NCBI GenBank assembly: GCA_030295235.1
Contig: AP026123.1
Location: 868,001 to 932,000 of the forward strand
Source: Fistulifera solaris
Lineage: Eukaryota
Reading direction: 5' to 3'
Length of the DNA stretch: 64,000 nucleotides
A model generated the notes under the pieces. That model was not told where the DNA came from, did no database searches, and saw only the letters and a program-made list of their open reading frames with translations. Of the stretch, positions 1 to 62,683 are shown in pieces; positions within the stretch are counted from its first letter, which is position 1, and the number at the start of each line of letters is the position of its first letter. The position numbers and the translations under genes were made by a program.

Positions 1-916
1 CCTAGGCCGCTTAAGAAACAAAAAGTTCCGAAACAAAAAGAAGACGTTGTGCGCATTCCTATGAAAACGGGAATCCTCTTGCTTTACAGAGGGGTAAATC
101 GACGAGCTGAATTTGTTCGTAAGGCCTAGCACTCTATTTACCCTTTTACTGACAAAGCTAGTAAGCTCTCGAACATTATAGTGATCGTCATCTGTTAAAA
201 GCGTCGACAAATATTTGCTCGCTCGCTGTACCCAAATGAATGAACAAAGAAGAAAAGATCTTTTTATGAGTCGAACTAGATTGCAGAGCCTTCACTGGGC
301 ACTCTTTGAGACTAACTTTCTTTATTAAGTCAGATTCCTTTGTTTAGCCGATTGGTAGCATGTCTATTTACTGTTAGTTGAACAAAAATAATGAGAATGA
401 GCAATGAGCCCACAGCTAAAAGTGTTTGAGTCTTAACGGTTTCTACTTCGATACACGGGCCTCGGCCTCGGGCCGGCCAACGGTCACAACCGTCTTTCGT
501 TAAAGCCTCGGGCCTGCCCAACTCCAATGAGCGACTCATGTATACACATTGAAAGACTCTTCAGTCGTCGGCAACGCAAGGGGCATAGGTCAACGTAAAG
601 CATTCCATAACCACATCAAAGACGTTGAAGCAAACGCGATGATACATTTAGGAGTTTCAACTTCCACAGCATCTGATGTTTTTGATGCCAAAGCACACTC
701 ATTTTTCGCCAAACCCAAAATATCCTTCTTTCATAAAGATCCAACCCGAACCATCTTTCAAATTCAGTAAAAAGATTTCACTTGGAAGCAGTGGTAAGCG
801 CTAACACTGAAGACTGAAGCGCTTGAAGCTGATATCATTGATCAGTGATCACATATGCTTTCGAACGTGCCGGCGCTGCCACGTGAATAGTCGATATTCC
901 TTGTTGACTGCGGACA

Positions 917-2861: not shown

Positions 2862-3387
2862 GTACGCATCCCCAAGAAAACATTTCCCACCGTCATTGAT
2901 GTCCTTCGGCAACAAAACTAGAAAGTTCGGGATAAATCTTTCTGTTCATTAGATCCATGTCAGCTTGCCATGCCTGTTGCAACGGCGGTGGAGTTTTCAA
3001 ACCAGTCCTCGACCAGATGTCTGCTTCCTTAGCCTCGGTTGCTTTGAAGTTTCTCAATCATACATCACATAACCTTTTATAACCTATTCATAATTCTTCG
3101 TGGCGCTTGAAAATAAAATGTGCGCTTATGGAGAGCTTTTTAGACCCTACGGAGTATTTATTTTTATACGGAGTAAAGCCAGGTCCTACAGAAATTCTGG
3201 ATTGAATTGGTGTTTATGGTCATACAGACATACAGACATTCTGTGTGAATTCCAGAAATTCTGGAACAGGTTGTCTTGTTCACACAAGGGTCACAGTCAC
3301 ACGTCACACAGAAAGTTCAGTGCATGTTCCAGAATTTCTGAAGAATGGTGGCTTTGGAACTTACAGAATATCTGTAGGATTACCAGA

Positions 3388-8947: not shown

Positions 8948-9354
8948 TGTAGCCTGGATAGTAGGATTGCATTCTCATTTCGGATGTGTCGGATGCTTCC
9001 GAGCTTACTGTAAAGAAAATAGTAGACGCCATAACCGTTTCCTTTTTGCTGCCGCCATCCGGCATCGAAAAACCGGAACACTTGAATCTTCCGGTAGTTT
9101 CGGTACGACATCAAGCTATAGATGATGAAGTACCCGGTAGGCTACAATTTATTGAGGTGACCTTTGACGTCAAATACGTCTACCAGTACGTCGTCAGGAT
9201 CCGGGATTCACATCTTTCGCGTCCACGAAAAAATGACATTGCAACGCAAAGCGAAAAGCGACAACTAAGATAGATAGAATCAAGTCAATCATTGTTTATA
9301 AATACATTTCAAACGTACGAGAAGCCAAGCTAACCTTCCAAGTACACAATCGCA

Positions 9355-16170: not shown

Positions 16171-16500
16171 AGTGTCTCTATACCGACGTCTTAATCAAGT
16201 GACAATAGATTGGACATGAGGATCAACAGTGGTAGGTACCAAGCAATAAAAAGCAAACTTGATAATTACTGTACACGCAAACGGCGGGGAGCAAATAATG
16301 ATGATGATGATGATTCTTCATAATTCATACTAAGGTTACGTGTAATTCATAATTCATAAGTCACGAGTGGAATGCAGTCGTGGCAAAAGTAATTTTCACT
16401 TTGGCCTATACTCCGTAGTAAATATTTGGAAGACAAAGTTTTACCGTCGTGATGATGATCCGATGCAAAAGACAATCACTTTTTGGCAATCAAAGCTTTC

Positions 16501-16616
16501 GTAATTGTAATTATAATCGCAGTTGAATGACAATGGACGGATGCGAGAGACGCAAAACGGAACCCTTTGTTGTTCCGTTCATGACTCATGACTACTGTAC
16601 AATCCAGTCTTGGCTA
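16501..16616 (+). repeat. Solitary partial copy of the ~245-bp satellite unit
   Basis: TCGCAGTTGAATGACAATGGACGGATGCGAGAGACGCAAAACGGAACCCTTTGTTGTT...TACAATCCAGTCTTGGCT matches units of the 44.9-46.0 kb array. Confidence 0.9.
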
Positions 16617-17533
16617 AAGGATTCACGAAAAAATGGATAAAATGTACTATGACCTCTTTAATCTTTTACAAAAATAATAAGATACAACGCTTCAAATGTC
16701 TTCTTTATTTCACGTAGCTCTTGTAGGGAATTTTCGACTGATGATATCCCAGATATTGTGTAATCTCGATCAATAAAATATCCAAATGGTCCACCAGCAT
16801 GGTTTCACTGCCAAACTTTTCGGATTCCAAAGGCAATTCGACATCACGAAGCAATAACTGCATTGTTAATGAAGCGGGTGACTCATCGATGTAATCAAAA
16901 CAATTCAAGCTCAACTTACTTGCAGTAAGAACCATGGTTAGGTAGTCTAGCAGTCTGGCTCGGGCATTATTTAGTTCATGATTGAAATGCAGTCGTGGTG
17001 AAAAACGTAGAAAACCCTGAACTCTTGTGAAACTCTGCGCTGTGAACGCGTGCTGAGCACGGTTTTTTTTCTTGCCACATTTTCTCCGCATCCAGATCCA
17101 GATCCAGGTTTGAAATTTCCTCTTGTTTGAAGTCGGAACGTCACGGCCACAGAAATCTTGTTTCGATATCGCATTCTTCACATTTCGATTGACATCGAAG
17201 ATACAAGCCACACCATGTCACAGAATTTGACGGATAGTCCCACCATTTTGAGAGAATCGTCCGGTTATCGCTGGCCTCCCATTCACGCCATCCGTTCTTT
17301 ATTGACCTTACCTCACGACGAGTCGGTCTCCGAAGGCGATGTGCAGAAAGCAACCTCGCCAATGAGTTCTCCGTCTCGCTCGCGTCAGACGTCTCGCCCA
17401 GCTAGTAAGGGCGACGAACCAATCTTTCAAACACCTCAAACAGAAATCGTTTAAATGGGGTCGACGAACTCATTCCGCTATCTTTTTAAAAAAATACCTG
17501 CTTGAACATAGTAGCTACATCTTCATTTTCTCT

Positions 17534-21426: not shown

Positions 21427-22761
21427 CCAGGGTGCTTGTCGGAAGTCTCTCCGTAACATACTATACAGTTTACGCTTATATAGTAATTATTTCAACGGAA
21501 ACATTTGTACTCTACTCAATTGTACAACATTTCGGGATAAATTCCGATACACGTTTTATGCTATGAGCTTAAATGCCGTTTGTCTCTAAGTAATTTTTTG
21601 TCATTATAGAGAGAAATTTTCTCTCTATAGAGAGAAATTCTCTCTGTAGAGAGAAATAGGGAGAAAATTTCTCTTAAAGGGAGAACATTTCTCTCTAAGG
21701 GAGAATCGAGAGAAAATCTCTCTCTAAGAGAGAAATTTTCATTATGGAGTAAGACGATTTCTGTTTAGAGTTTTCCTCTGCTGAACGAATTTTATGTAAT
21801 GGACAATGTGGGCGTCGGGCGTCGTTGCGTCGGTGCATTACTTTTCTGCTTGACAAGTATCGAAAGAGGTTTCTTTTGCAAAAGAGAAATTCATATCAAC
21901 TCAAAACCTATTATCTAACGCTTTTGATTAATGGCAAGAATGAGAGACCAAAGGATTAAGAGGGAAATCTCTGAATGAACTGAGATGCGGCCGTGGCGTG
22001 CTGGAAACTCAACAAGCCCGGGAAAACGAAGCAGCCCCAGACCGCGGAAATTTGCCAGACTCTTCAGTCAGCATGGAAAAGACAAACTGTGTCCAATGAG
22101 CCGCGGATCAAATATGTTTTCACAGTAAAAACAAAAGGGAAATTGAAAATGGAACGCACCAAACAGCACGACGCCGAGCCAAAATGGCACTCGGCCTGCA
22201 CACGCCATTCGTCTTTCCAAAGCTAAGCCCCATTGTTCCTGTTGACGAGGTCAATTGATGACTAGCTATCGGGGACAAATTACATTTTAGTAATTAGAAA
22301 TGCTTGTCTCGCTGCACCGTCTTTTGTTTTTGCGTTGGTTGTTTTGTGCGATAACGGTTGTTCGTTGTGTGTTGAGGTCTCTTCATCGTCTACTTTTAAC
22401 CTTAATTACACAAAGAAGTGAACGAAAGCATAGAAAAAATATCTCTCTACAGAAAGAACTTTCTCTCTAAAGAGAGAAATAGGGAGAAATATCTCTTTAA
22501 GGGAGAAAATTTCTCTCTAAGAGAGAAATCGAGAGAAAATCTCTCTAAAGAGAGAAATTTTCTCACTTCAGAGAGAAATTTTCTCTCTGGCAAAAAACAC
22601 ATTACTTGTTTTGCGTTATGAGCGAACATACCGTTTCGGTTGCTTAAGATAATATTTAGTTGGAACCAAGTTTCGTTCATAGATATTTAGGAATTGATAC
22701 GACATCGAAACCGTAGATAATCGGAACCGCTCGGAGTGAGTAATTTCCGTCAAGCTCCCAG
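21427..22761. mobile_element. Putative non-autonomous TIR element (Tc1/mariner-like MITE) with palindromic subterminal repeats
   Basis: TA|CCAGGGTGCTTGTCGGAA at the left end and TTCCGTCAAGCTCCCAG|TA at the right end (14/18 inverted match). Blocks of AGAGAGAAA(T/A)TTTCTCTCT lie at ~21608-21740 and ~22432-22588. No transposase ORF. Confidence 0.6.
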
Positions 22762-32289: not shown

Positions 32290-32596
32290 CAGATTTTCGG
32301 GACAATCGTGAAAATAGTAGACCTATACGCCCAGATTTTCGGGAAAAGCGTGAAAATAGCACACGCCCAGATTTTCGGGACAAGTGAAAATAGCACTCTC
32401 CCAGATTTTCGGGAGACGTGAAAATAGCACACCCCCAGATTTTCGGGACAAGTGAAAACAGCACTCGCCCAGATTTTCGGGACAACTGAAAATAGCACTT
32501 GCCCGGATTTTCGGGAGACGTGGAAACAACACTCTCCCAGATTTTCGGGACAAGTGAAAATAGCACTCACACAGATTTTCGGGAGACGTGAAAACA
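32290..32596. repeat. 34-bp minisatellite, ~9 copies
   Basis: C(A/G)GATTTTCGGGA core at 32290, 32332, 32368, 32402, 32436, 32470, 32504, 32538 and 32572. Confidence 0.95.
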
Positions 32597-32775
32597 ATTG
32601 TCCCACAGGTTTTTTTTGGTGTAGGCTTACGTCACACTTCTTATCCAGGCCGCCGCGACCATGACCTCTGCTATTCATTCATTCATGCCGATTGCATGAT
32701 TTTCGCGATGAAGTAACTAGTAAGCGTGTGATTCCAGTCCTCACTGCATTGCACGTGACACGTGACTAGTGAAAA

Positions 32776-33456: not shown

Positions 33457-33921
33457 GTGGTAAATGCTCGAAAAAAAAACAGCTAAGGTGGGCATTGGCT
33501 TGCTGGCAATGATCATCCGTGATACCAACGAGGGACGAACGGAAAGTAGCTAAGATCAAGCGGTACTTCCTATAGACTGAAGGTTGCCTTCTAATTAGCT
33601 GAACGACGAAAACATGTGTGCCGTTGCCATTGCTCTTCATTACCTCGACCTTCTAGTTCTGGAGACGACTAGTTTAGTTTTTCCGCGACACCCGATCAAC
33701 GATCAACGTGTATGTGACTGTGCGCCGTACGTATCGGAAATTTATTACTCCGTACCTGGTATTCCGTATAACGGATTACGTATCTCGTCCCTCATCGTCC
33801 GAATGCCGAAACAAATCGACAAAGACAAAAGCGACGCGAAAAGTTGAAGACACAAAAAGCAAGCAATCTGAGTGTTACTTCTCTGTTTTCCGTTTTCTTC
33901 GTATTTAGAAGCTATACAACA

Positions 33922-35297: not shown

Positions 35298-35848
35298 TGA
35301 ATACTAAGCTCCTATAGAAAGTAATAGACTTGAATGACTTTCAAAATTTATGAAAATATCGAAAAATAAAACGCACCGACGACGACGATGCTGTCGATCT
35401 TCCAATCATTCGGTACACGGTAAGACATTTATCTGTTTCTAGCATAGGACGGCCAATACCGGAATCAAAAAGACAGACCAAAAAATGAAAACAGCCGAAA
35501 AAAGGTCAAAGGCCGCGCATTGATTCGACACAACATCAAACCAAATAAATAAAAGCTTGTTACGTCGAGTAGCTTGATCATTCACTTGACAAAGCAGCGC
35601 TCCACATATCTCTTGCGCAAGAAGGCGCAAGAAGGCGCAAGAAGGAAAAGAAGAGTAAATTATCGAGACGTCGGGGGTCGAAACATCGACAGTGTCAAGA
35701 ACAAAAACCGGACGACGAGCGCGGTATCCATGTGGGCAAACAGAGGCTCTACTTTGACTGCTTTATTGACATTATCGGTTTCAACGATCCCTTTATACGT
35801 CCGATCCTTCGAAAAATTTGTAAGACCGAGGAGAAACTTGTTCAAAAA

Positions 35849-36805
35849 ATGTCGGCGCATGCGAGAGACTCATCCCCGCCGCTGATTGATGTTGATTGCA
35901 ATCTCAACCACAAGGATCTCAAGCCGCTTTTTGACGAAGCTAGCGACCTTCCGCCTCCCTTTCAAATTCTGCAACAAGATGCAATCGAAAAGGCGAACAT
36001 TGTGGCCGTTCTGTCACCCAGCAGTACGATTGACGAAGCCAAGATTCTTCTGGAGTTGTTACCGGCCAGTTCGGCATTGCCATCGATACGCACAACTGTA
36101 GGGGTTCATCCGTATCACGTGATCGATGAAGGACCTTCTTTAGAACAGCAAATGAAGAAGTGTGTTGAGCTTCTGGAGAAGTATTCGTGTCACATTGCAG
36201 CAGTGGGTGAATGTGGAATTGACACATCGGATGGCTTTCCTCCGATTGAAGAACAAGTTCCCTGGTTCCAGGCACAGATTGCTCTGGCAGAACAGTTTCG
36301 AAAGCCCCTTTTCGTACACGAGCGTTTCGCTCATCAAAAGACGATGGAACTATTGGCTGATTGCACCGTCCCTGTCATCATTCACTGCTTTACCGGCAAT
36401 CTCGAAGAATGTCAGGCTTACGTGGAACGTGGCTACTACATTTCTGTTTCGGGGTTTATCTGCAAAGATACGGAGGAAGCACTCAACACACTCAACTGTT
36501 TGCACATTGTGCCACTTGATCGTCTCATGCTTGAGACAGACGCTCCGTATATGGGATTTCGTGGTTGTAGAGATCTCTATCTCGAGAAGCATCCAGAATC
36601 ACTCGCAGAGCTCAACTCCAAAAGTCGGAAGCGGCTGACGAATACCTTCTATCCAAATGTTCCTTCCTCGTTGACGTTGGTTCTGGACCGAGTAGTGGAA
36701 ACTTTACAGCAAAGAAGCGATTTCGTTTCTCGTGATGAGGTGGCCTGGCAGACAAGCAAGAATGCGAATCGTTTCTTTCAGTTCAATTTAGAAGGTTTAG
36801 ACTGA
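35849..36805 (+). CDS. TatD-family DNase
   Basis: Motifs LIDVDCNL, TVGVHPY, AVGECGID, PLFVHER, IIHCFTG and LMLETDAPY. Start uncertain. Confidence 0.92.
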   Translation: MSAHARDSSPPLIDVDCNLNHKDLKPLFDEASDLPPPFQILQQDAIEKANIVAVLSPSSTIDEAKILLELLPASSALPSIRTTVGVHPYHVIDEGPSLEQQMKKCVELLEKYSCHIAAVGECGIDTSDGFPPIEEQVPWFQAQIALAEQFRKPLFVHERFAHQKTMELLADCTVPVIIHCFTGNLEECQAYVERGYYISVSGFICKDTEEALNTLNCLHIVPLDRLMLETDAPYMGFRGCRDLYLEKHPESLAELNSKSRKRLTNTFYPNVPSSLTLVLDRVVETLQQRSDFVSRDEVAWQTSKNANRFFQFNLEGLD

Positions 36806-36976
36806 AGTTGAGGGCAGTTTTAAATCTGAACCGTACGAATAGTCTGTCGAAAATGTTAATGAGGACATTAGCGATGCAAGTTGCCCCTCCTTGTCGGATC
36901 ATTGTGCGAGGCTGAGTTCAAACCGAAGGTTTCGCTTAACGCATGCTGTAGAAGCAAGTCGCTTAATGAAGTGTTA

Positions 36977-37639
36977 TCAACGAGCCCTTGGGCTAAAAAG
37001 AATGCGCTGCTGTAGTGACAACGAAGACAAGGTACTGATGTTGGATAATGCCCGCGGAACGGTGTTGATGTTGGGTAGCGTCAGTGGCACGCTATTTAAT
37101 TGACTGTTTACCTGAAAGTCCAGGAGATTCAACTGTCGGGGATAAGATATTGGTGGTACAAGTGCTCTCGGGTGTATTTGTTGAGTGTGAAGGTAACGAC
37201 AGGGGAGGCTTGCAGCTAGTTGACGAGATAGTGACTGCTGCTCATTTGCTGAGTGAAGCAGTGGTCGCTGGGGGAACAAAGATGAGGAAGGAGCGGACGC
37301 TATGGGCAGGGTGATCTGCAATGCTACTGCTTGATTATGCTGTGCGACTATCAATTGGGCCTGTCGCAGGAGCAATGTCAGTTGCGCATTGTGTGCTTTG
37401 ACCTTCTCGTTTCTCGCTATCCACTTATTCTTTTCAGCAATGAGGGTGACCATCTTCAGCTTCTTTCGGTAGTATTTCCTTTGAGAAATCAAAGAATTTC
37501 GCTTTTTTTGGATTTGAAGGTTACTCCTTTGCTTTTCGGAGTCGGTTGCATCGGCAATCAAGTTGTCCAGCTCTGAGATTTTCGTTTTTACTTCCTCTAC
37601 TGTATCATATCCCTCGTTGTTACCTAATGACTGCTCCAT
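36977..37639 (-). CDS. bZIP-like transcription factor
   Basis: Basic region KKRNSLISQRKYYRKK, then a heptad L......W......V......L zipper and a Q/P/S-rich tail. Confidence 0.55.
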   Translation of the reverse strand: MEQSLGNNEGYDTVEEVKTKISELDNLIADATDSEKQRSNLQIQKKRNSLISQRKYYRKKLKMVTLIAEKNKWIARNEKVKAHNAQLTLLLRQAQLIVAQHNQAVALQITLPIASAPSSSLFPQRPLLHSANEQQSLSRQLAASLPCRYLHTQQIHPRALVPPISYPRQLNLLDFQVNSQLNSVPLTLPNINTVPRALSNISTLSSLSLQQRILFSPRAR

Positions 37640-37919
37640 GTCATTAGAAACAAATTGAAAAGAGTCAACTCGAAAATAATCGCGCAGTTTCGTTGATTAG
37701 CGAGCGCCACCTTTGTTTTATGCATGATTTCCACTCTCCTCTCTGCGTTGTAGATTGAAGTTCGAAATTATGTGGGACATGAAGGTCCGTCACGAGGCAC
37801 CAGCTCATTCTTCGTTTTCAGTTTTCACACCTCAGTCTTCACTCACACATGAAGCGACGTTAGAATTCTGCCTCGCCGTAGGCTCTACGTAGAAATTTGT
37901 ACTGAGAGGCAGAATTTTA

Positions 37920-38920
37920 ACTACTACGGAGTAACTAGTATGGAGTAATAAAATACTCCGTACTCCGTAGCAAATAACAAATAGCTCAAAGCGCATACTG
38001 TAGCTCCAACCCCCGATTATAAGTGATAATAAGTGCCCTACGCCCTACTCGGCATCACCTATGTAAATACTCCGTACCGAGTAACAATAGAGTATCGAGT
38101 GACGACAGACGACAGTGATGCTCACTCTTTCGAATTAAAAATAAATAAAGTTACAGTAGACTAGTCCAAAGGGGCGAAAGGACAAATGACAAATGGGAGT
38201 GACTGGAAAGGACGTTAAAAGTTAGACGTTGGACGTTAGACATGAGTTAGAGTTAGAAGTTAGAATGTTACTTCTCGCTTCTCGCACTCACAACTCACAA
38301 CTCACAACTCACAACTGGTTACTGCTTCAGTATTCAGTACTCCGTATTAGTACCAATAACCAGTGACCAGTCACCAGTCACCATAGAGTCTATTCTCTAT
38401 TCTCTATTCTCTCTAGACTCTAGAGAGAGAAACAGAGAGTCGGGAGTCGGGAGCTTGGACTTTGGATTTTGGACGCTGAACGCTGAACGCTGGAAGCTCG
38501 AAAGTAAAAAGCAGAGAGCAGAGAGACAGACAAGAGACAAGATACAGGATACAGGAGACGGAAGAGAGCCTTTGGCCTTTGATCTGGACTTTATACTTGA
38601 GACTTAGTATAGACTATAGGGCCGTTGAGGTTGTGAACTGGAAAGTGGAACACGTGATACCTGACGTGATACGTCGTACGTCGTACGTGAATAGGGAATA
38701 GGGAATACTATCTACTATCCTTTGCCGTAATAATTTACACAAATAATAATGTCAAAAAGTCGCACGACTGCACTGGCGTATTTCTTACTCCGTATTATTT
38801 CTATTTTCTATCGTAGGTTCTCTAGAGTCTAGAGTCTAGAGGTCAGTGACCATAAATACGTATTTTGTATTTGTCCGAACCCGAACAATGCACGATCCCT
38901 ATCTATTCTCTAACTCTCCA
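37920..38920. repeat. Tract of heterogeneous 7-bp tandem duplications
   Basis: Examples are (ACTCACA)4, (TCTATTC)3, (TCTAGAG)3, (GAGTCGG)2, (GCTGAAC)2, (TACAGGA)2, (ATAGGGA)2, (CTTCTCG)2, (GACAAAT)2 and (TACTCCG)2. Confidence 0.9.
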
Positions 38921-39907
38921 CCGAAGAGGACTCTTTACTTTTAGAGAGCAAGGAAATTGCTTGTTGCTTTAGTAAAAGAGAGAGCCAGGAGTAGATCAAG
39001 AGAAGGTAAGATCGCAGCCGTGCACGAATTATCATCTTCCAGACCATCGGCATTCTAAAGGGTCCTGCTTCCTGCATAGCATCCAGAGACCCGACACCCG
39101 ACAGCAACTAAAAGTACCTGGCTCTGGTCTTTATTGATTATACCAGCAGAGCGCTTGATAATTCGAATGAAAGGTCTTTTTCTCCTTTGATTTAACTTGA
39201 AACCTCTCATTTGTCGTTTCTGTCGACACGAAAAGTTATTTCCGGGCATGGCTGACCCTGGTGTTGACGACAAAATTTGGGGAGGAGGGAGGAGTCGACG
39301 ATTCTTTCCATGCGTGACAGTTTTGATATTTGAATACCTCCCATTGTCAGTTGAACATACCAAAGCCTTTACGAGTTTAAAAGCCATTAAACTTAAACGT
39401 CCAACGTTCGGTTGAATAGACTAACTACAACCCCTAAATATTGAATAAAGGTGCAGTTTGATTTCGCCTTGCCGTGTCATTACTTTGTATTTATCGTGTG
39501 CAGCATGCTAACAAATCCTTTAAAAAGCATGTTATTGTCTATTGTTCATGGTTTCGTTGTTATTAAGACTGTCATGAAAGTCATAAAGATGTGTGTCTTT
39601 ACCAAGTAATGGCATCATCAGAAAAACGAATTAGGGGTTAGGCTACTGGTACGGTAAAGGAATAGCAGCCATCCAACCGTCCAACAGTCGCAAAAAAAAA
39701 ACGAAAACCGAGACGAGAGCGTTGATAAGAGCGATGAAATGCTGGTAGTCACCTTACTTGGCAGCGATGCCTATGTTTCGTGCGTTATTTTCTGCTTTAC
39801 GTTGTTGGAGTTCGCCCAGCCACATAGCATCAAATTCTGACGGAAACGCGGATCTCTGCTGGTTAGGTGTTCACTAAGAATTTCTGGCTCGTCGGATAGA
39901 AGCCTAA

Positions 39908-40980
39908 ATGCGTCGAACAACTTCTTTGAGGTGGCTTTTCTTCGGAATCTTGTGCTTCTGCTGCTATTCTTTTCGTTGCACCAGAAAGGCTGCGTTTCAA
40001 ATCGATGCAGCCGCTCGCATTCGGCTCGTCAAGCATCCGAAATTTCCGATGATGACAATTCATCGAAAATACGCCTCAACAAAGTGTTCAAAGCTACTCA
40101 TTCGAGAAGAGAGGCCGATTCTCTTATTGCGAGTGGCCGTGTCACTGTCAACAATATTCCGGTTATCTCAAAAGGAGGAATATTGGTTCAACCCTATGAA
40201 GATGTCGTTCATTTAGATGGAAAACTGATTGAGGGATGGGAAGTTTTGAATAGTATCGCTCGCGTCGACGAGAAAGACACGAGCTTTCAAACAGTCAAGG
40301 ACGAAACTAAGAGAACGCCGCCTGAATCTGTTTTTCAGTATATCAAATATTGGAAGCCCATTGGCGCAGTTTGTACGACGGATCAGAAGGTTCCTGGTAA
40401 TATCATCGATCAATTAAAAAAAGACGGATTCGAGCCAGACAATCGTATTTACCCGGTAGGCAGACTTGACAAAGACACTACAGGACTGTTAGTCCTTACC
40501 AACGATGGCCGAGTTCCAAATTCGTTTCTTCGAAGCAAGCATCGCAAGTCGAAAATTTATGAGGCGGTAGTGAATCGCCCAATCGGAGACGACGATATTG
40601 AACAACTGAAGGTTAGTGAATTGTCTTACCCGTTGCCCTATCCTCTTAATGCTTCTAACGTGGTTGGGACATGGAAGGCTGGTGTTGAAATATATACAGA
40701 GACAAAGCGAAACGGGATTGTCCGGTCTTTGACAGCCAAGACGTTACCTAGCCTGGTAGATCGTCTGTCACGCCGCGCAATTAGGATAACAATTGTGGAG
40801 GGTCGCAATCGCCAAGTTCGTAAGATGCTAGCTGCCTTGGGTTACGAAGTAATAAAGCTGCACAGAGTATCCTTTGGTGGCATTGGTCTCTATCCACTCG
40901 AAGCCCCAGGTGACTGGATTGCTTTGAACGATGATGAGATTCGCTTGATACAAAACTCCCTACATTCTGATCGTGAATGA
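39908..40980 (+). CDS. RsuA/RluE/RluF-family pseudouridine synthase with S4 domain
   Basis: S4 domain RLNKVF...SRREADSLIASGRVTVN, then YWKP.G, YPVGRLDKDTTGLLVLTNDG, EGRNRQVRKM and LHRVSFGGI. Probable in-frame intron at 40612-40677. N-terminus uncertain. Confidence 0.9.
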
Positions 40981-42120: not shown

Positions 42121-42444
42121 AGTTTAACAGTTTTAATTATCAAGTGATGAAGAGATCGGCTGCACCACAACCTACGTTGCCCTCAAACAACAACAACGAC
42201 ACGCGACGCGATGATCCGTTGGGTTCATTTGTTTGCACGAAAATCTGTGTCGGTACTCTACTCTTCAGTGCACACAACATGATGTAACATGATGTCTCAA
42301 ACCGCGAAAGGTGCGCCAAGCAGGCCCGCCGCCCGCCGCGCACCTTCACTCAGTAATCTGCGTCTTACCGGCATCTTGTGTACACTTTAACTATGTCCAG
42401 GACTTCGCTCTTTGTTTCACATTCCCAGAAATTCAGGAAGATTG

Positions 42445-42731
42445 TTGTTTTCACGTGTCCCGAAAGTTTGGGCATGTGGTGTTATCAAGTGTCCCGACAA
42501 TAAATCTGGGCGTGGGGTGTTTTGACGTGTCCCGAAAATCTGGGTGTGTGGTGTTTTGACTTCTCCCGAAAATCTGGGCGTGTGCTGTTTTCACGTGTCC
42601 CGAAAATCTGGGGGAGTGGTGTTTTCACGTGTCCCGAAAATCTGGGCATGTGCTGTTTTCACGTGTCCCGAAAATCTGGGGGTGTTTTGTTTTCGCGTGT
42701 CATTTACTCATGCGTGTCCCGAAAATCTGGG
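42445..42731. repeat. 34-35-bp minisatellite, reverse complement of the 32.3-kb array
   Basis: Repeated TTTTCACGTGTCCCGAAAATCTGGG, about 8 copies. Confidence 0.93.
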
Positions 42732-42864
42732 ATTGAGCAAAAAAAAATGAAACATGTTGAGAAGCAATGCGTTGCAAGGGCAAAGATGAAGTGCATAGCA
42801 GTACGATGATATTCTGAAAAGTTTCAGCCTACGTAACTCACTGTTATTGATACGGAACATACAC

Positions 42865-44868: not shown

Positions 44869-45988
44869 TACCCGCAATTATAATTTTATTCGCAGTTTTG
44901 AATGACAATGAACAATGAACGGATGCGAGAGACGCAAAACGGAACCCTTATTATTATTTGTTGTTCGGTTCATGACTACCGTACAATCCAGTCTTGGCTG
45001 GTGTAAACCAACACTCCGTTTGATAGTGGAAATTCAAGGTGTCGATCCTCGGATTTTTTCGACGTGAAAGATAAAAGAAACTCTTAACAAAAATTTCAGA
45101 ATCATCATTGTTGCGACTTTTGATTACCCGTAATTATAATTTTATTCGCAGTTTTGAATGACAATGAACAATGAACGGATGCGAGAGACGCAAAACGGAA
45201 CCCTTTGTTGTTCGGTTCATGACTACCGTACAATCCAGTCTTGGCTGGTGTAAATTAACACTCCGTTTCATAGTGGAAATTCAAGGCGTCGATCCTCGGA
45301 TTATTTCGACGTGAAAATAAAAGAAACTCTTAACAAATAGTTCAGAATCATCATTGTTGCGACTTTTGATTACCCGTAATTATAATTTTATTCGCAGTTT
45401 TGAATGACAATGAACAATGAACGGATGCGAGAGACGCAAAACGGAACCCTTATTTGTTGTTCGGTTCATGACTACCGTACAATCCAGTCTTGGCTGGTGT
45501 AAACCAACACTCCGTTTCATAGTGGAAATTCAAGGCGTCGATCCTCGGATTTTTTTTTAACAAGAGTTCCAGAATCATCATTGTTGCGACTTTGATTACC
45601 CGTAATTATAATTATGTTCGCAGTTGAATGACAATGAACAATGAACGGATGCGAGAGACGCAAAACGGAACCCTTATTTATTGTTCGGTTCATGACTACC
45701 GTACAATCCAGTCTTGGCTGGTGTAAATTAACACTCCGTTTCATAGTGGAAATTCAAGGTGTCGATCCTCGGATTATTTCGACGTGAAAATAAAAGAAAC
45801 TCTTAACAAATAGTTCAGAATCATCATTGTTGCAACTTGCAACCTTTTTCCACACGTTATTATAATTATGTTCGCAGTTGAATGACAATGGACGGATGCG
45901 AGAGACGCAAATGGAACCCTTTGTTGTTCGGTTCATGACTACTGTACAATTCAGTCTTGGCTGGCGTAAACCAACACCCCGCGTCATA
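44869..45988 (+). repeat. ~245-bp tandem satellite, ~4.6 copies
   Basis: Unit starts at ~44869, 45125, 45371, 45597 and 45851, with high identity between units. Confidence 0.97.
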
Positions 45989-46300
45989 GACCAGAGAGTG
46001 TAATTTTTGGAAACTTGTCCTTTTATAGTATACTTTCTCTACTTGTTAATAATGACGGAGGATCATCAGTTGAGTTGCATCTGGTACGCTCAGACGGGAA
46101 ACGAAGAATACGGTTAGTAGATAGATAGACCAGCACCGTCTAACCAAAGCGGATGAGAGCTAAGGGGCAACCCGCTACGTGGGCTGCGCAACAGCATAGA
46201 AACAGAACGGACCAAGGAAGTGCTCAATCGAGAGCGGACATATCCGCACACAACAAATACATTTTTCTAATAAAAATGGATGTTGTAAAAGTAGACTACA

Positions 46301-47088
46301 TCCGGCTTTCCTCTGTCGATACTTTCCCTACGGGGGCCTACGTGATATTCACGTAGACATTCGCAACATTGCATCTGTTTGTCTAAGTCATGTTTAGTGC
46401 TGCAATAATTATTGATCCTTAGAAACCTCTTTTGTGAATACATGTTGAGGAATGGTACGATGAAATTCGTCGCTGTGGACCCTTATTTAACTGAGATCAG
46501 ATTCAAACTGCCGTGGTCAAATTATACCATTTCCGGGTTCCCCCTCTGTCGATAAATTTCCTTACGGGGGCCTACGTGAAACCTACGTAGACATTTGACG
46601 CGCTAAATCTTTCATCGTCCTTCATTCGTCATGAGTTCGAATTGTCGTCGAGTGTCGCTAATGGACACTAATGGTTCATGCTAGAGATGGTTAAAAATGA
46701 TTTTGGTGCAAAATGGGCCCGAAAATGGTCGTGGTCAAATTATACCATTTCCGGGTTCCCCCTCTGTCGATAAATTTCCTTACGGGGGCCTACGTGAAAC
46801 CTACGTAGACATTTGACGCGCTAAATCTTTCATCGTCCTTCATTCATCATGAGTTCGAATTGTCGTTGATTGTCGCTAATGGACACTAATGGTGCATGCT
46901 AGAGATGGTTAAAAATGATTGTGGTGCAAAATGGGCCCGAAAATGGTCGTGGTCAAATTTTACCATTTCCGGGTTCCCCCTCTGTCAATAAATTTCCTTA
47001 CGGGGGCCTCCGTGAAACCTACGTAGACATTTGACGCGTTAAGTCTTTCATCATCCTTCATTCGTCACGAGTTCGAATTGTCGTCGAT
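46301..47088 (+). repeat. 218-bp tandem satellite, ~3.5 copies; same family as the 3.4-4.0 kb array
   Basis: Core TCCGGGTTCCCCCTCTGTCGATAAATTTCCTTACGGGGGCCTACGTGAAACCTACGTAGAC at 46532, 46750 and 46968, with a diverged copy at 46301. Confidence 0.95.
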
Positions 47089-47690
47089 TCACGTTCATTA
47101 TTCCTAATTTCCTAGAGTCAGAATGCAATTGACACGAAAAATATCTAAGTTGTATAAGCTGGGCAAGGGTTTATGCGACTCAAGGCAAACGGACCCAAAC
47201 AAGAAACAAGTAAAACCTTACGAAGTCGAAACTCGACTATTTCCTGGTACAAAGTACCGGTACCGCGGTACCTGGTGGTATGGTACTGTACATGGTACTG
47301 TACCGGTACCGAACCTTTTTCAGTCCCGTCAATTAGCGACCAACAAGCCGGATGTTCGCAGTGTTGGCGGAATGCGATGGTGAATGGTGACTGCTTCTAA
47401 GGTCATGAACTTTTCAAAAGAAGAATGATTAGATTCTAGTCCATGCTCATAAATAATAATGCTTTTCATTTTACGCGCTAATCTAAGGTGTTGAAGACAT
47501 GCAGCTTACAACGATCGAAAATAACTCGCTACAACAAGATAATGTCGCACCACCTTTACCGAGCCGAAACTTTCCGGTCATTTTCGCCTTGTACACACGA
47601 CAATGACCCATTTGCACGCATTGATGTTGGAGTCAAGAAAGGTGCATTGTTCATTATTATTGGTCGGCCGTTTCACACAAACGAGTTTCA

Positions 47691-49279: not shown

Positions 49280-52200
49280 CGTACTTCCATTGCTGTCATT
49301 CACTTTACGCAATCTTTTGACTCTCGTTATGGTACGCTCAAGGCCATCACATCGTTAATGATGGGACGCAGACGGCAGTCCACCTATACCTCCGCCTAGG
49401 TTAAACCGACAAGGTCCGGAACGCCAGCTAACGACTCCTCCTCGGCTCAAGCCTCGGCTTTGCTGCTTGAAGCTGTGTATCCGGCGGAGCTAACCTTAGC
49501 TGTATCTTGAATCTTGTATGCTAAAGTCTAAAATTCTCTTGTTGTATCGTTGGACAGATATCTGTGATCTGTGACCTTTCGGCAAAGAATTCGTGATTCC
49601 ACATGTCACAAAGTACATTAAAAGTAGATACTGTACTTTCATTCTGTGCGACTATGATCAATGAAGTACTTTGGCGTTACCGCCAATCGACCGACGCGAT
49701 GATCGACATGCGACGAGACTAGCGAGCGAGCGAGCAAGCAATGCATTCCTCATTGACAAGCAACGAATCAACACTTCATTGCATAAGAAGCTTATTCGAT
49801 ACCGTTTCATCTTCCCCTTTAAACGAGGACTAGAGACTGACTACAGAAGGGGGCAAAGTGATCGCCAGCGAGTTGAAAGTATCCTTTGCGGGTAAGGGAA
49901 TCGCTACCATGTCAATGCATCGATACATGAACAACAAACTAACTACGATCGTTTCTCTCTTCCTTTCAGTCAAACCACACGCTAGCGTTTCATCATGTCA
50001 TCGAACAATGCTAAACCTCCGCCTCGAATGGTCGTCGAACGCGCGGCTCCCCCATCGACGTCAAAGCCTGCCGAATCCCGGGATCTCGAAGAACGGCCCA
50101 CGGAGAACGTTGACCAAGACAACAACCAAGCGAGTAGCAACACCACTGTTACTGTTAGCTGTTGCAGTAACGGCAGGGACCACACAAGTCATTGCTGCAG
50201 TCCTGGTCACTCTTTCTGCCAAGTCGTCAACGACACTCCTTTTGACGAAGAGGCATTTCGACGACGTTGAAGTCTTGATAGAGGACGACCGTATCATCAA
50301 AAATAAGAAGCCAGAAAGCGGTCGCTGGGGTAAAAAACGAATGGCGGTCCTCTGGAAGCACACAAAGCTTATATCCAGCATCCGTTGCACAAGTTCTATT
50401 TCTGCCTAATCTGTTACCCGAAATCAGCAAGGTGTTCGTGACTTCAAGCAGGCCGAAGTCGTCCTTCACAGAAAGAGACTGGAAAAGCATGCTTCCGAGT
50501 TTGAACACATGATTACTGGAGCGGCAGATTTTGTTCAGAACGAAAAGGAGAAGGGGGAGGGAAAAGGTTCATGCTAGCAAGATCATCCTGTGGCATCCGT
50601 TTGCTGGATGGTACTGCAAGCTCAGCTTCCGACAAGAATGGTGATGGGGACTATATCAATGCTTGGCGTCAATACTGGTTCAGGTGATCTTGGCATGCAC
50701 GTTTCTGGGCATAACAAAAATCTCGAAGATCGTGTCATAATTCTTGGCATTAAGGAGTTTCAGCCAACTCTGAAGGATCATCCGAAAAGTGTTCTCGATT
50801 ACTATTTCGGGAAAGTTGACTACGGAAAAGGGATGGAACGAGTCGGCAAGAGAAGGGCGTCAAATTCGAGCGAGAATTTGAAGAGGCATCGGATGAAGTG
50901 TTTGAGAAATGGCGTTCCGAGATGGAGGAGTGTAACGAACAAGGAAAGCCCTTTCCTCCGTTCATCCTAGCGTCTGTTGTGCGTCCGGATGCTCAATCGA
51001 ACCGAAAACGGCACAGCCGTAGTGGGCGAACGTGCGAAAATCATCAGCCGTGAGGTTCAATTTGATCTAATGAACCAATACAACTTCTACAAAGATCATG
51101 CCAACGAACGAGCCGAACTTCATCGTGTGGCGCAAAACATGGAGTTTCGCGAGCTACATGATGAAGATGGTTTAGATTTTGGTGACATTCGAACGCTAGT
51201 GTACAACTTGGAAAAGTTCATTGTTGTGGATGGGAAAGCCATCTTTGAGGTTGATTATGCCATTTCAGTAAGTGGGTTGGGGCTTGAATACTACGTATTT
51301 CCAGTGGTTTACTTGATATGTGATATCGGTTGCGTGATTTGGGTGCGTTGTCGCCACGTAAGCAAAGCCATTGCACTCGAAAACTCTTGGACGGAGACAC
51401 AGAAATTATAGGTGTTCGATATGTGATGGCGAAAAGAATCGAGCTCGGTCTGACTTCAAGGAGTCTGTAGAGTTCTATGAAGTGTATTTGATTCGAACAT
51501 TTGGAGTATGTAAATCGACACCGGCACGAGGTGCAAGAGGCTATTACCGATTTGCTTCGTTCGCGAAGTGAACAAATTGGTTGGGCTTGCAAATATTCGC
51601 TTGCGCGCACCTCAACATGACAGCCTATGGTGGACCTCGACCTGCAGGTCATATTTGTCAACACGACAGTCATCGATGGAACAACGACATTCGCGTGATC
51701 CGATGGATTCCATGGGCAGACAATTATCGGGCAGAAAATTTGGACCCTCTGTACGTATTGCGCCGAATGAGCTGTCATTTGTGATGGAATTGTAGCTCTC
51801 ACCATTCTCTTTCTTATTCCATGGTTCAGATCATCCATCAAGTACCCGGTGTTTCGAACCAAAGTGCGCATTGATCCCAACGTCAAAGTTGATTATGCAA
51901 CGTGGAATCACCATCCCGGAAAAACGCTTGGAACACATTTGGGTGGATCCTGGCGGTACTCACTGCTGGGATGATCTAAAGAAGAAAATGCTTAGTATTT
52001 CGGAGAATTGGTACAAGGAGGGATGGATTGAACGATCGGTCGGCATCAAGGACGCCATGGTTCGCGCGAGCTGTACAGTTTCGGCCGTTCATGCTATGAA
52101 ATTCATAACCAAATTTCTCTGGACCGCAAGGGTTTGACAGTCGATCACGTAAACAATGAACGCTGACGATAACAGCAAAGATAATCTTCGCTGGCAACGG

Positions 52201-54773: not shown

Positions 54774-55958
54774 TATGGCTTTCGTATTGTTTGAGTATTG
54801 TAAGTAGTTAGCAAATACTCGTATACTTACTTTTCATGATGGTTAAACATTCTTTACAAACAAAAAAGATTGGAAGGGGCGGACGAGAAAACTGAGAAAA
54901 AGCAAAACAGAAACTCCTCCTACCCGTCGCCATACAGACCGCAAAAATGATTTGCAGAGTCCCGTCAAAAAAGTAATATACTACGTACACGATACTAATA
55001 CAACAACATTCACACTCCAAGAAATGACGTCTGTCTCATGAATGAGCAAATCAACCTGCGAACTGCGAACAAAGATACCGTAGCCAAAAATAAACTGCAA
55101 AGAACCTTTCCAACAATGAGCTTCAAGGACAATGAAAAGGAGGAAACGGACGCATTTCTTACCAGCAGTAGTGTTGAAAGTCGGTGCTCGACATGCAACT
55201 TTTTCTCGAAAGGTGACTCGAAAATTTGGTGCAATCCGTCAAAGTTCTACGCAGCAGAGAACCAGCCACCGGAAACATGACGGAACGATTCTTTTAACGC
55301 TGGGACTTTCAACTTTGTTTTTGGTTAAAGTGGATTGTTTCTTGCAGTATCAAAACAAACAAGAGGTCACGGATACGGGGCAAGAAATACGACACGATGG
55401 AAGAATACAAAATGGGCGAAAGTCATGGATTGAAAGGCGTCAAAGTTGGTGATGTAGTTGAAGTTCTGCAAGAGGATGTTGGTCCTGGGCGCATGTGATT
55501 GCGATGAATGCGGTGTCACGCCCAGAAATTTGTCCTTCCGAGTGAGATCAAGGAAGCGATTAATTGATTTAAACGAACAAAGTGAGTTTGAAACCATTGA
55601 AGGAACGACAGCTTATGCTACAAGAAGCTATGGACGTTGCCGAGCGAAGCGGAACCTTTATTGGCAAAGTTCATCACCATTATCGCAAACAAGCTTTATA
55701 CGCTCTGTGAACCGATCAACTTCGACTCAAGAACAATGCAACACTAAGACGAACGCTACGTAGTTTCCGCGTAGGAGTCGTACAAAGTACGTAGTAGAAA
55801 AAGCTATGTTCGACATTAGTTGAGGAGAGGAGAATTGCACTGCTTCGAGTGTCTACGTCAATTTCATGTAGCCCTCGTGGGACGAATAACGATCACTTCA
55901 GCTGAGTCTTACAAAACGGGAACACCGGATAGATTATTGTGACCATATCCCATAACCA

Positions 55959-60680: not shown

Positions 60681-60871
60681 GTTTTATTTGAAGTCAACTG
60701 AATATACATTTAGTCTACTCTTTGTTGTTGCTATCCGCATTGTTTTTTGTCTTCGTCGACACCTCCACCTATAGACTAAATAAATAATAATTGTCGCGAT
60801 CCGCGATGCGACACCGAGGTCATGTAGTACGACCTACGTAAATCTAGCTAGAGAGCCATTTTTTCACGAAA

Positions 60872-62117
60872 CCTTGAATTTTCAGTATGAAACAGAGTGT
60901 TGGTTTACGCAAGCCAAGACTGGATTGTACAGTGGTCATAAAAACCCAACAAAAAAATCCGTTTTGCGTTTTGCGTCTCTCGCATCCGTCCATTGTCATT
61001 CAACTGCGAATATATTTATGATTACGGGTAAGTAAAGTCGCAACAATGATGATCCTGAACTACTTGTTAATTTCTTTAATTTTCACGTCGAAAATCCGAG
61101 GATCTACATCGAAAAGGAGTGTTGGTTTACGCCAGCCAAGACTGGATTGTTCAGTAGTCATGAACCGAACAACAATGTGTTCCGTTTTGCGTCTCTCGCA
61201 TCCGTCCATTTTGATTCAACTGCGAATATAATTATTATTAACTGGTAAATAAAATCGCAACAATGATGATTCTGAACTACTTGTTAAGAGTTTCCTTTAT
61301 TTTCAAGTCGAAAAGCCGAGGATTGACACCTTGAATTATCACTATGAAACAGTGTGTTGGTTTACGCCAGCCAAGACTGGATTGTACAGTAGTCATGAAC
61401 CGAACAACAAAAGAAAGTTTTGCATTTTGCGTCTCTCGCATCTGTCTATTGTCATTCAACTGCGAATATGATTATTACTACGGGTAGATAAAGTGGCAAA
61501 AATGATGATTCTGAACTACTTGTTAAGAGTTTCCTTTATTTTCAAGTCGAAAATCCGAGGATCGACACCTTGAATTTCCACTATGAAACGGGGTGTTAGT
61601 TTACGCCAGCCAAGACTGGATTGTACAGTTGTCATGAACCGAACAACGAAGGGTTCCGTTTTGCGTTTTGCGTCTCTCGCATCCTTCCATTGTCATTCAA
61701 CTGCGAATATAATTTTAATTAACTGGTAAATAAAGTCGCAACAATGATGATTCTCAACTAGTTGCTAAGAGTTTCTTTAATTTTCACGTCGAAAATCCGA
61801 GGATCTACATCTATTGAATTTCCACTATGAAACGGAGTGTTGGTTTACGCCAGCCAAGACTGGATTGTACAGTTGTCATGAACCGAACAACAAAGGGTCC
61901 CTTTTGCGCCTCTCGTATCCATCCATTGTCATTCAACTGCGAATATAATTATTATTAACTGGTAAATAAAGTCGCAACAATGATGATTCTGAACTACTTG
62001 TTAAGAGTCTTATTTTCACGTCGAAATAATCCGAGGAACGACACCATGAATTTTTACTATGAAACAGTGTGTTGGTTTACGCCAGCCAAGAGTCGTCGAT
62101 TGTACAGTAGTCATGAA
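60872..62117 (-). repeat. ~245-bp satellite, ~5.3 copies, inverted relative to the 44.9-kb array
   Basis: GTT(G/A)GTTTACGC.AGCCAAGA anchors at ~60899, 61101, 61356, 61595, 61839 and 62071. These are the reverse complement of the 44.9-46.0 kb unit. Confidence 0.97.
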
Positions 62118-62683
62118 TCACAGTTGTTTTATTTGTCGCGATTCGCGATGCATTTCACAAAAACAAAACGTCGTCTTTGACATCACAACAAAGCAATATT
62201 GGATGAAATCAATGAACAGGTGTTTTTGCTTCGTTTTGTCTTTCACAGCGGCCAAAGCAACAATCAACTGTCAAACATCTTCTTTAAGTGTCATTTGTGG
62301 TCTATTCCTTGTTCCCCGTAATGCGAAGTTCGTGCCAACATTATCATTGAAGATACTTGTTTTTTACTAAAAAGACACAGGAGAGGTCAGATTCTTCATT
62401 ACAAAGTATTTTGGCAGCTTTTCGAGTTGATCGATTTTGACCATGACTGGATTTCAGTCATGAGGCGCAAACAGTTTTTACGCGGTCGTCGCCGCTGGCT
62501 CATCGCATTCTTCATCGTTTATTTCTTTCTCGCAAGGATCTGCGACGATGCGAGAATAAAGGCAAAGCAAGGTGCACACCAGTGCATGAGGTTGTTATAT
62601 TACTCGTAGAGTTGATTGCATCCAAGTGTTCCGGCCGACCTAATACCGCACCAAACGGAACTGGTGTTTTCCCTCTGTGTCTC

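Follow-up and report, generated by a model that had tools for sequence, protein, structure and literature searches.

In the genome of the diatom Fistulifera solaris, a stretch of 64,000 nucleotides (GenBank assembly GCA_030295235.1, contig AP026123.1, positions 868,001 to 932,000 of the forward strand; hereafter the window, numbered from its first letter) contains a tract of about 1 kb, first noted at 37920–38920, in which dozens of different 7-bp units are each duplicated in tandem. Here we report that this tract is a hotspot of mutation and not what is left of a decayed satellite, and that the process acting on it copies exactly 7 bases of arbitrary sequence and places the copy head to tail beside the original. 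The duplication is precise, independent of pre-existing repeats and indifferent to target sequence, has a sharp preference for 7 bp with a shoulder at 6 bp, is focused on a single promoter spacer and varies between strains; more rarely, the same length-specific copying acts in other non-coding DNA of the window. With moderate confidence, we attribute the hotspot to double-strand breaks in this promoter spacer whose ends are staggered by 7 nt, then filled in and joined again.

One period, many units

When each base was compared with the base k positions further on (match at lag k), the tract gave a match of 0.512 at lag 7 and 0.218–0.291 at lags 1–6 and 8–13, so that lag 7 stood sharply above the neighbouring lags 5–9, as the initial annotation of this DNA had anticipated. 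The match was 0.353 at lag 14 and 0.312 at lag 21, and it had returned to baseline by lag 28 (0.275, versus 0.254 at off-lags); averaged over the whole window, the lag-7 match was 0.260. All of the top ten 500-bp sliding windows for lag 7 start within 37501–38501, and in 100-bp bins the signal climbs from 37700, reaches its maximum of 0.57–0.66 in 38200–38699 and has vanished by 38900. Two features describe its extent:

37920..38920: stutter tract, with weaker lag-7 signal from about 37700 to 38900
38200..38700: hotspot core, with a lag-7 match of 0.53–0.66 per 100-bp bin; 15 perfect runs begin here

Tandem Repeats Finder returned 21 period-7 rows between 37954 and 38841, with a different unit in each. 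Perfect 7-bp duplications number 23 in 37600–39000 and 22 in 37920–38920, compared with two perfect duplications of 6 bp and none of 8 bp in 37600–39000; the whole window holds 48, where 3.6 are expected (10 Markov-1 simulations). The units named in the initial annotation were all recovered, GACGTT(A/G) and TTTGGA(C/T) as imperfect runs. The perfect runs of the tract (at least two copies of a 7-bp unit), by start position, and the duplication at its left edge are:

37814..37827: GTTTTCA, two copies, perfect 7-bp duplication at the left tract edge
37954: TACTCCG
38035: GCCCTAC
38101: GACGACA
38181: GACAAAT
38251: AGTTAGA
38271: CTTCTCG
38286: ACTCACA, 4.4 copies (38286–38316)
38326: TTCAGTA
38366: ACCAGTC
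38389: TCTATTC, 3.4 copies
38411: CTCTAGA
38437: GAGTCGG
38473: ACGCTGA, 2.9 copies
38510: AGCAGAG
38528: AGACAAG
38541: GATACAG
38568: GCCTTTG
38670: TACGTCG
38689: GAATAGG
38706: TACTATC
38798: TTTCTAT
38821: TCTAGAG, three copies

With at least 22 different perfect units, the tract lacks the single motif, or variants of one motif, that define a heptanucleotide array. The GC content of the region is ordinary (0.40–0.44), which ruled out a low-GC, centromere-like composition.

The units nevertheless drift while the register holds, as in GAGTCGG, GAGTCGG, GAGCTTG, GACTTTG, GATTTTG, GACGCTG, AACGCTG and onwards (38437–38560). We therefore considered an old heptanucleotide microsatellite reshaped by ordinary slippage or unequal exchange, in which an ancestral (N7)n array was altered by point mutation and local re-duplication ('cryptic simplicity') and isolated duplications elsewhere are unrelated. 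This gradual change in register (17 units in 38437–38560, with neighbours agreeing at 4–7 of 7 positions) and the presence of certain units three to four times speak for such an origin, but the units have no motif in common, the lag signal is lost by lag 28, and pieces unrelated to any heptamer are stuttered as well, namely a fragment resembling a dispersed repeat (38203–38220, by inspection) and the 9-mer TACTCCGTA.

We next simulated the build-up of the tract by starting from a random sequence of 500–650 bp and adding 50–71 exact duplications of 7 bp, placed uniformly at random; each event brought 0.004 substitutions per site (two settings). The model compares with the tract as follows:

Match at lag 7: model 0.47–0.54, observed 0.512
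Match at lag 14: model 0.33–0.39, observed 0.353
Match at lag 21: model 0.28–0.32, observed 0.312
Match at lag 28: model 0.27–0.29, observed 0.275
Perfect runs: model 20–22, observed 22
Runs of 12 or more: model 3.4–5.1, observed 6

Under this model, neither an ancestral heptamer array nor extra slippage is required for the tract statistics, including the copy-number distribution. The look of a heptamer array need not mean an array, because insertions of 7 bases keep the register and overlapping events chain related units. Greedy collapse of neighbouring units at a threshold of at least 6 of 7 matches stripped 44 units (308 bp) from the tract, and the remainder still had a lag-7 match of 0.35. 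Copying in about 50–70 events, mixed with point mutations, produced between about one third and one half of the ~1-kb spacer. Multiplying the count of duplicates that remain perfect by 14 and dividing by the length yields, at steady state, an estimate of how fast a base is duplicated relative to substitution; this gives 22 × 14 / 1000 = 0.31 for the tract and 18 × 14 / 24415 = 0.010 for the other non-coding DNA described below, making the tract a hotspot of roughly 30-fold.

To establish whether the tract is real, we turned to six public runs that contain parts of 36900–40100. A 2246-bp contig from run X1 spans 37892–40100 with 0 substitutions, although X1 is possibly the window's own source and is not counted as independent. 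A 946-bp contig from run X2, a wetland metagenome from a separate study, spans 37892–38803 with 8 substituted letters and 50 letters in gaps. Of these gap letters, 43 belong to six itemised in-tract indels relative to the window: +14 at 37974, +2 at 38214, −7 at 38251, +7 at 38449, −7 at 38541 and +6 at 38657. Four of the six are multiples of 7 (7 or 14 bp), as expected of unit-wise length change, and four of the eight substitutions cluster at 38418–38423, possibly through a shifted alignment. Over 2.3 kb of flanking sequence, X2 and the window differ by indels of 1–2 bp only. The 7-bp excess among indels between strains that the initial annotation predicted is thus present, as is the tract itself in read-derived contigs of two studies. 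Because the X2 contig differs from the window mainly by multiples of 7 while the flanks do not, the tract is polymorphic and differs by 7-base steps between close relatives, which suggests that the process is still active. Across the 3.2 kb of this one strain comparison, 7-bp units were gained or lost and no element insertion was seen. The four 7n indels against 4–8 substitutions in 912 bp give a ratio of the same order as the tract's 0.31. For slippage, it counts in favour that the X2 indels are mainly multiples of 7 and lie at existing duplicates.

The tract is real. An assembly or base-calling artefact, which might be suspected from the single-base homopolymer differences between the window and the runs at 36995 and 39969, has a negligible chance of accounting for it: the X1 contig, with the reservation just made about its source, agrees without substitution, the independent X2 contig spans most of the tract, and homopolymer errors do not produce 7-bp duplicates.

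Two further observations came from the same runs. Contigs of X1 (depth 19.9) and X2 (depth 11.6) link 37935 to 38820 through 11 other letters. This junction could come from a second locus that has the same flanking pieces, or from a form of the present locus that lacks the ~885-bp tract. In addition, the (ACTCACA)4.4 run at 38286–38316 draws many unrelated metagenome contigs, with depths of up to 281 (X2) and 42 (X6); the heptamer thus also occurs as a simple repeat elsewhere, in other organisms or at other loci. Run X6, a sediment metagenome, matches only this run and one 221-bp piece, and has no bearing on habitat.

Seven-base-pair duplications outside the tract

Outside the tract, we counted perfect tandem duplications of primitive units in 24,374 bp of non-coding DNA, from which the tract, open reading frames (ORFs) of at least 150 amino acids and long-period arrays had been removed, and compared the counts with 200 dinucleotide-preserving shuffles:

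4-bp unit: 83 observed, shuffle mean 72.8, observed count reached in 24 of 200 shuffles
5-bp unit: 18 observed, shuffle mean 21.0, reached in 157 of 200
6-bp unit: 15 observed, shuffle mean 5.4, reached in 0 of 200
7-bp unit: 18 observed, shuffle mean 1.52 (standard deviation 1.2, maximum 6), reached in 0 of 200
8-bp unit: 1 observed, shuffle mean 0.34, reached in 60 of 200
9-bp unit: 0 observed, shuffle mean 0.1, reached in 200 of 200
10-bp unit: 2 observed, shuffle mean 0.02, reached in 0 of 200
12-bp unit: 1 observed, shuffle mean 0, reached in 0 of 200

Duplications of 7 bp were therefore ~12-fold above expectation, with no excess at 5 bp or at 8–9 bp. Two of the 6-bp cases, at 390 and 3290, are triplets of a 7-mer minus one base. 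The ORFs of at least 150 amino acids (34.8 kb) contain a single 7-bp event, compared with 18 in the non-coding set (24.4 kb); such near-absence is as expected if frameshifting events are purged from coding DNA. We located the isolated duplications named in the initial annotation at 16343, 16579 and 49560, as well as within units of the ~240-bp repeat described below. Duplications of two copies, unless stated otherwise, are:

396..409: AATGAGC, with a third copy minus one base ahead of it, isolated
806..819: ACTGAAG, isolated
3296..3309: GTCACAC, with a third copy minus one base ahead of it, isolated
9248..9261: AAAGCGA, isolated
16343..16359: TAATTCA, 2.4 copies, isolated
21810..21824: GGGCGTC, isolated
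32752..32766: CACGTGA, isolated
33693..33708: CGATCAA, 2.3 copies, isolated, 38 bp from a TACTCCGTA motif
39089..39103: ACCCGAC, 7-bp duplication within the 5′ leader exon of the gene to the right of the tract
39280..39294: GGGAGGA, 7-bp duplication
42324..42339: GCCCGCC, 2.3 copies, 7-bp duplication
47197..47210: AAACAAG, isolated
47377..47390: ATGGTGA, isolated
49560..49574: ATCTGTG, isolated
55056..55070: CTGCGAA, isolated
62136..62149: TCGCGAT, isolated

The isolated events allowed the junctions to be characterized. Their 18 lag-7 runs have lengths of 7, 8, 9 and 10 in 7, 7, 2 and 2 cases, where an exact copy with chance extension predicts ~10, 5, 2 and 1. Because the run lengths fit an exact 7-base copy with chance extension, there is no flanking microhomology. 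Runs of length 6 at lag 7 number 9, versus 4–9 at lags 8–14, and runs of length 7 at lags 8–12 show no marked excess; since neither length-6 lag-7 runs nor spaced 7-base repeats are in surplus, the junctions are clean, without altered or filler bases. Among the 16 events with unambiguous register, the duplicated units share no target motif. Copies that arise from a prior repeat or from microhomology, the hallmark of microsatellites and slippage, are thus not what the isolated events display; they display the precise, repeat-independent tandem duplication expected of fill-in at staggered breaks.

Four 7-bp duplications could be polarized within a ~240-bp repeat family, of which 12 copies were aligned. 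The family forms arrays at 44869–45995 (copies a) and 60860–62125 (opposite strand; copies b) and has a partial solitary copy at 16490–16625 (copy c). The duplications, each limited to a subset of copies, are:

44905..44920, also 45161, 45407 and 45631: ACAATGA, two copies, in a1–a4; absent from a5, the b copies and c; alignment columns 36–57
60960..60976 (b6): CGTTTTG (CGCAAAA), 2.4 copies; b3 (61657) has it too and b4 a mutated version, and b5 and b2 lack it; columns 78–84
16579..16593: TCATGAC, two copies, in copy c only; columns 112–118
45830..45843: TTGCAAC, two copies, in family copy a4 only

Because each is restricted to a subset of copies, all four are derived insertions. The remaining indels in the alignment are of 2–3 bp, a (TTA)n run and deletions of 3–4, 17 and 23 bp. 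Slippage in an old array accounts for the appearance of the tract, but it leaves unexplained these four derived insertions at unique positions, the 18 isolated, microhomology-free duplications and the steep fall in counts from 7 to 8 bp, and we consider it an unlikely account of the data.

Proposed staggered breaks and their possible agents

These observations lead us to the following scheme. A double-strand break would first be made by nicks on the two strands 7 bases apart; both single-stranded overhangs would then be filled in; and the ends would be joined without loss, yielding a 7-bp tandem duplication. The break-maker may prefer the open centre of a bidirectional promoter, which would place the hotspot where it lies. 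The candidate agent that we favour is a cut-and-paste transposase with a 7-bp stagger, acting through insertion and clean excision or abortively; the other is an unrelated nuclease that prefers open promoter DNA. Abortive transposase action and an unrelated nuclease fit equally well. Clean junctions fit clean fill-in better than classic excision footprints.

Transposases generate target-site duplications (TSDs), and the initial annotation had proposed a length-specific process at a hotspot, as opposed to the amplification of one motif, with staggered cuts that are filled in and footprints of an element having a 7-bp TSD as examples. The process itself is upheld by the evidence above, and either example may apply; the second found no counterpart in the window, where a direct repeat of 7 bp flanks 0 of 1030 inverted-repeat candidates (the scan, which asked for arm seeds of exactly 9 nt and for exact boundaries, would miss degenerate elements) and 0 of the 37 larger ORFs, which are housekeeping genes, encode a transposase. 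Three candidates have a 6-bp direct repeat, with arms of 9–10 nt and spans of 2.7–3.9 kb across genes, and are likely due to chance.

The transposon version of the scheme may draw support from an inverted-repeat element at the left edge of the tract and from its fragment inside the tract:

37851..37921: 71-bp dispersed repeat with inverted-repeat arms, resembling a miniature inverted-repeat transposable element (MITE); right end truncated exactly at the tract start
38203..38220: fragment like the end of the 71-bp repeat, followed by stuttered GTTAGAC/GTTAGAA (by inspection only)

The arms of the repeat (37859–37880 and 37900–37921) are 86% complementary. The bin 37863–37969 has a summed contig depth of 4302 (X1) and 4955 (X2), compared with ~13 and ~11 alongside, and the repeat therefore has hundreds of copies. 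Positions 37851 and 37921 are the end points of many contigs, and beyond 37921 other copies run on with GTCCTTTCC; an X2 contig connects 37921 back to 37851 through 8 letters, indicating tandem copies elsewhere. Neither the 71-bp repeat nor the tract recurs elsewhere in the window. A metagenome scan with the repeat arms returned 8 loci, all unrelated hairpins in contigs of other organisms, and scans of viral_contigs and genome_contigs returned nothing and one chance match in a metagenome-assembled genome of a planctomycete, respectively. By inspection only, 38203–38220 is the reverse complement of the continuation of other copies together with the last 7 bases of the 71-bp repeat. An inversion with 7-bp staggered ends, which this piece might have marked, was dropped, as the second breakpoint lacks the expected inverted 7-mer.

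Several points weigh against the staggered-break scheme. The 6-bp excess (15 versus 5.4) means that the length varies somewhat or that another process contributes; the simulation proves sufficiency, not necessity; all counts derive from one 64-kb window and one strain comparison; and the polarity of the X2 indels is not readable, so that all four 7n changes may be losses of one copy and compatible with slippage. No enzyme for the breaks was found in the window. Against the transposon version in particular, bare duplications would vastly outnumber resident elements, and the TSD of the 71-bp repeat is unreadable because its right end is cut off at the tract. Moreover, when hAT, P and Tc1 elements excise, their footprints are usually imperfect and keep element bases or altered junction bases.

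Length-specific, repeat-independent duplications are rare; the best studied, the 1–4-bp duplications caused by Top2, have become a recognized mutational signature. Trapped Top2, which cuts with a 4-nt stagger, is reported to yield de novo duplications of 1–4 bp that depend on non-homologous end joining (10.1101/2020.05.03.075358), and breaks with complementary overhangs are reported to give small tandem duplications through fill-in and non-homologous end joining (PMC8355091). The diatom duplications resemble both in their independence from repeats and in the precise head-to-tail copy, whose length would equal the stagger of the break, and they likewise constitute a mutational signature and not an element. 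They differ in length: because duplications in the diatom peak at 7 bp and show a shoulder at 6 bp but no detectable excess at 5 bp, versus 1–4 bp for Top2, the enzyme is not Top2.

Among transposons, Galileo/1360 elements of the P superfamily, which move by cut-and-paste, have TSDs of 7 bp whose consensus is GTAGTAC according to the available text of the report, whereas the diatom 7-bp units have none (PMC2775673); a Mutator-like element (MULE) of Phaeodactylum, the one diatom DNA transposon found with a stated TSD, is described with 9-bp TSDs (10.1101/2023.01.02.522487). Like the tract, TSDs and excision footprints are direct duplications of fixed length made from arbitrary host sequence, clustering is expected at preferred insertion sites, and a high-copy MITE-like repeat adjoins the tract. 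They differ in that the diatom junctions are clean and that neither an element with a 7-bp TSD nor a transposase is present in the window. Our literature searches on diatoms returned nothing on 7-bp tandem duplications, heptanucleotide repeats or elements with 7-bp TSDs, and a term search of the available text of a 2025 preprint on diatom transposable elements returned no mention of TSD lengths or footprints.

Cryptically simple sequence and compound or variant-repeat microsatellites are patchworks of short, changing motifs made by slippage. The tract resembles them as a patchwork of locally repeated non-coding motifs whose copy number is polymorphic between strains, and it differs in having one exact period for dozens of motifs, no microhomology, and recurrence at isolated unique sites.

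A further possibility is that a polymerase or primase re-copies a fixed length without any double-strand break, by re-priming or template realignment 7 nt back at a site of fork stalling or initiation. Fixed length, clean junctions and the absence of a target motif are all compatible with it, and a precedent exists in E. coli: point mutants of topoisomerase I, such as the R168C mutator, are reported to produce short head-to-tail tandem duplications independently of repeats, so that a staggered break is not the sole route to them (PMC6954433). These duplications resemble the diatom ones in needing no prior repeat and in being able to seed tandem repeats; they differ in that the system is bacterial and that the available text describes neither length specificity nor a hotspot of the diatom kind. 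A polymerase or primase with a sharp 7-nt step is neither known to us nor was found in literature searches, and at a GC content of 0.40–0.44 no mark of an origin or stalling site appears in the window. On balance, we judge re-copying improbable, a little more so than slippage.

Returning to staggered breaks, we assign the duplications by kind to the staggered-break or TSD type, of which we did not find a 7-bp diatom form in print, and there is a real chance of an undescribed enzyme activity. To our knowledge, no eukaryotic enzyme with a general 7-nt stagger has been described. We tentatively suggest, as a possibility well short of probable, that this diatom lineage possesses an endogenous activity of this kind, making 7-nt staggered breaks at arbitrary sequence with a preference for promoter DNA that is open; it might be a transposase, domesticated or autonomous, an abortively acting recombinase or a new nuclease. 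If so, clean fill-in and rejoining of such breaks would write a sharp 7-bp signature, make new spacer and promoter sequence and seed heptamer microsatellites. The signature would indicate a specific break-making activity that nobody has sought, and the activity responsible could be traced by asking which genes accompany the signature from one diatom genome to the next. The tract itself shows several hundred bases of new non-coding DNA arising from local copying alone in the middle of a bidirectional promoter, which bears on the birth of promoters and microsatellites, and its 7-bp steps between close strains would make such tracts sensitive strain markers.

Neighbouring genes, a recurrent 9-mer and other repeats

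The tract lies in the middle of a divergent gene pair, with its signal peak near 38400 close to the midpoint:

36977..37639, minus strand: left flanking ORF of 220 amino acids, read away from the tract; an X3 contig covers 37577–37745
39004..39077, plus strand: GT..AG intron of 74 bp in the 5′ leader of the pseudouridine synthase gene; an X3 contig skips from 39003 to 39078
39931..40980, plus strand: right flanking ORF, RNA pseudouridine synthase (PF00849, E value 1.1e-16), read away from the tract

Contigs of run X3 are transcript-like, although no run is on record as RNA; they reach 37745 on the left and 38976 on the right, so that the exon upstream of the intron extends to at least 38976, and they leave the tract itself uncovered, from which nothing is inferred. 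The left ORF had been described as a bZIP-like gene; it matches no Pfam family, and no bZIP match appeared even at E values up to 5, so that this description is not sustained. The homopolymer differences at 36995 (A run) and 39969 (T run), each of one base relative to all of X1, X2 and X3, fall within the two flanking ORFs, whose limits as given here may be affected; at 39692 (A10) the window differs by one base from X1. Nearby, a TatD-like ORF at 35732–36805 has its closest named relatives in raphid pennate diatoms (Nitzschia, Mayamaea, Fragilariopsis; ~50–54% identity), and other proteins match at 97% and 78%.

The 9-mer TACTCCGTA, often with AAA directly before it, has 11 matches in the window, where 0.15 are expected, and 0 of 100 shuffles reach 11:

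37925..37969: three copies, one inverted and two overlapping via a 7-bp duplication; further tract copies at 38068, 38338 and 38786
3148–3175, 16409, 33746 and 58227: outside the tract

All copies are intergenic (between ORFs), in otherwise unrelated contexts. The two strongest lag-7 loci outside the tract, at 16.2–16.7 kb and 33.3–33.9 kb, contain one copy each, and three of the four non-tract loci have a 7-bp duplication within ~150 bp (rough p about 0.02–0.04). The association of TACTCCGTA with 7-bp duplications is no more than suggestive; the motif could be a promoter element or a binding site of the duplicating agent. A literature search for TACTCCGTA and its complement returned unrelated primer matches only.

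These surroundings raise the question of whether selection multiplied cis-regulatory elements in a bidirectional promoter, where paired sites bind factors better. The position of the tract between divergent genes, with transcript-like contigs reaching up to either side, and the six tract copies of an over-represented intergenic 9-mer would suit this idea. Selection would not, however, set the length at 7, and the dozens of unrelated units share that exact length, duplications also occur inside the non-genic ~240-bp arrays, copies vary between strains and the neutral random model is sufficient. We accordingly regard selected multiplication as very improbable.

The window is also rich in longer tandem arrays. 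The two ~240-bp family arrays lie in opposite orientation ~15 kb apart, and a separate array of 2.7 copies of a 218-bp unit, 96% alike, is found at 46512–47089. Arrays of ~49-bp units made from the palindromic AGAGAGAAATTTCTCTCT lie 700 bp apart at 21606–21738 and 22430–22579. Arrays of 34-bp units, with 7–8 copies each, are present in opposite orientation at 32328–32594 and 42415–42732; the two are ~80% alike and flank a 10-kb block that holds the tract and five genes.

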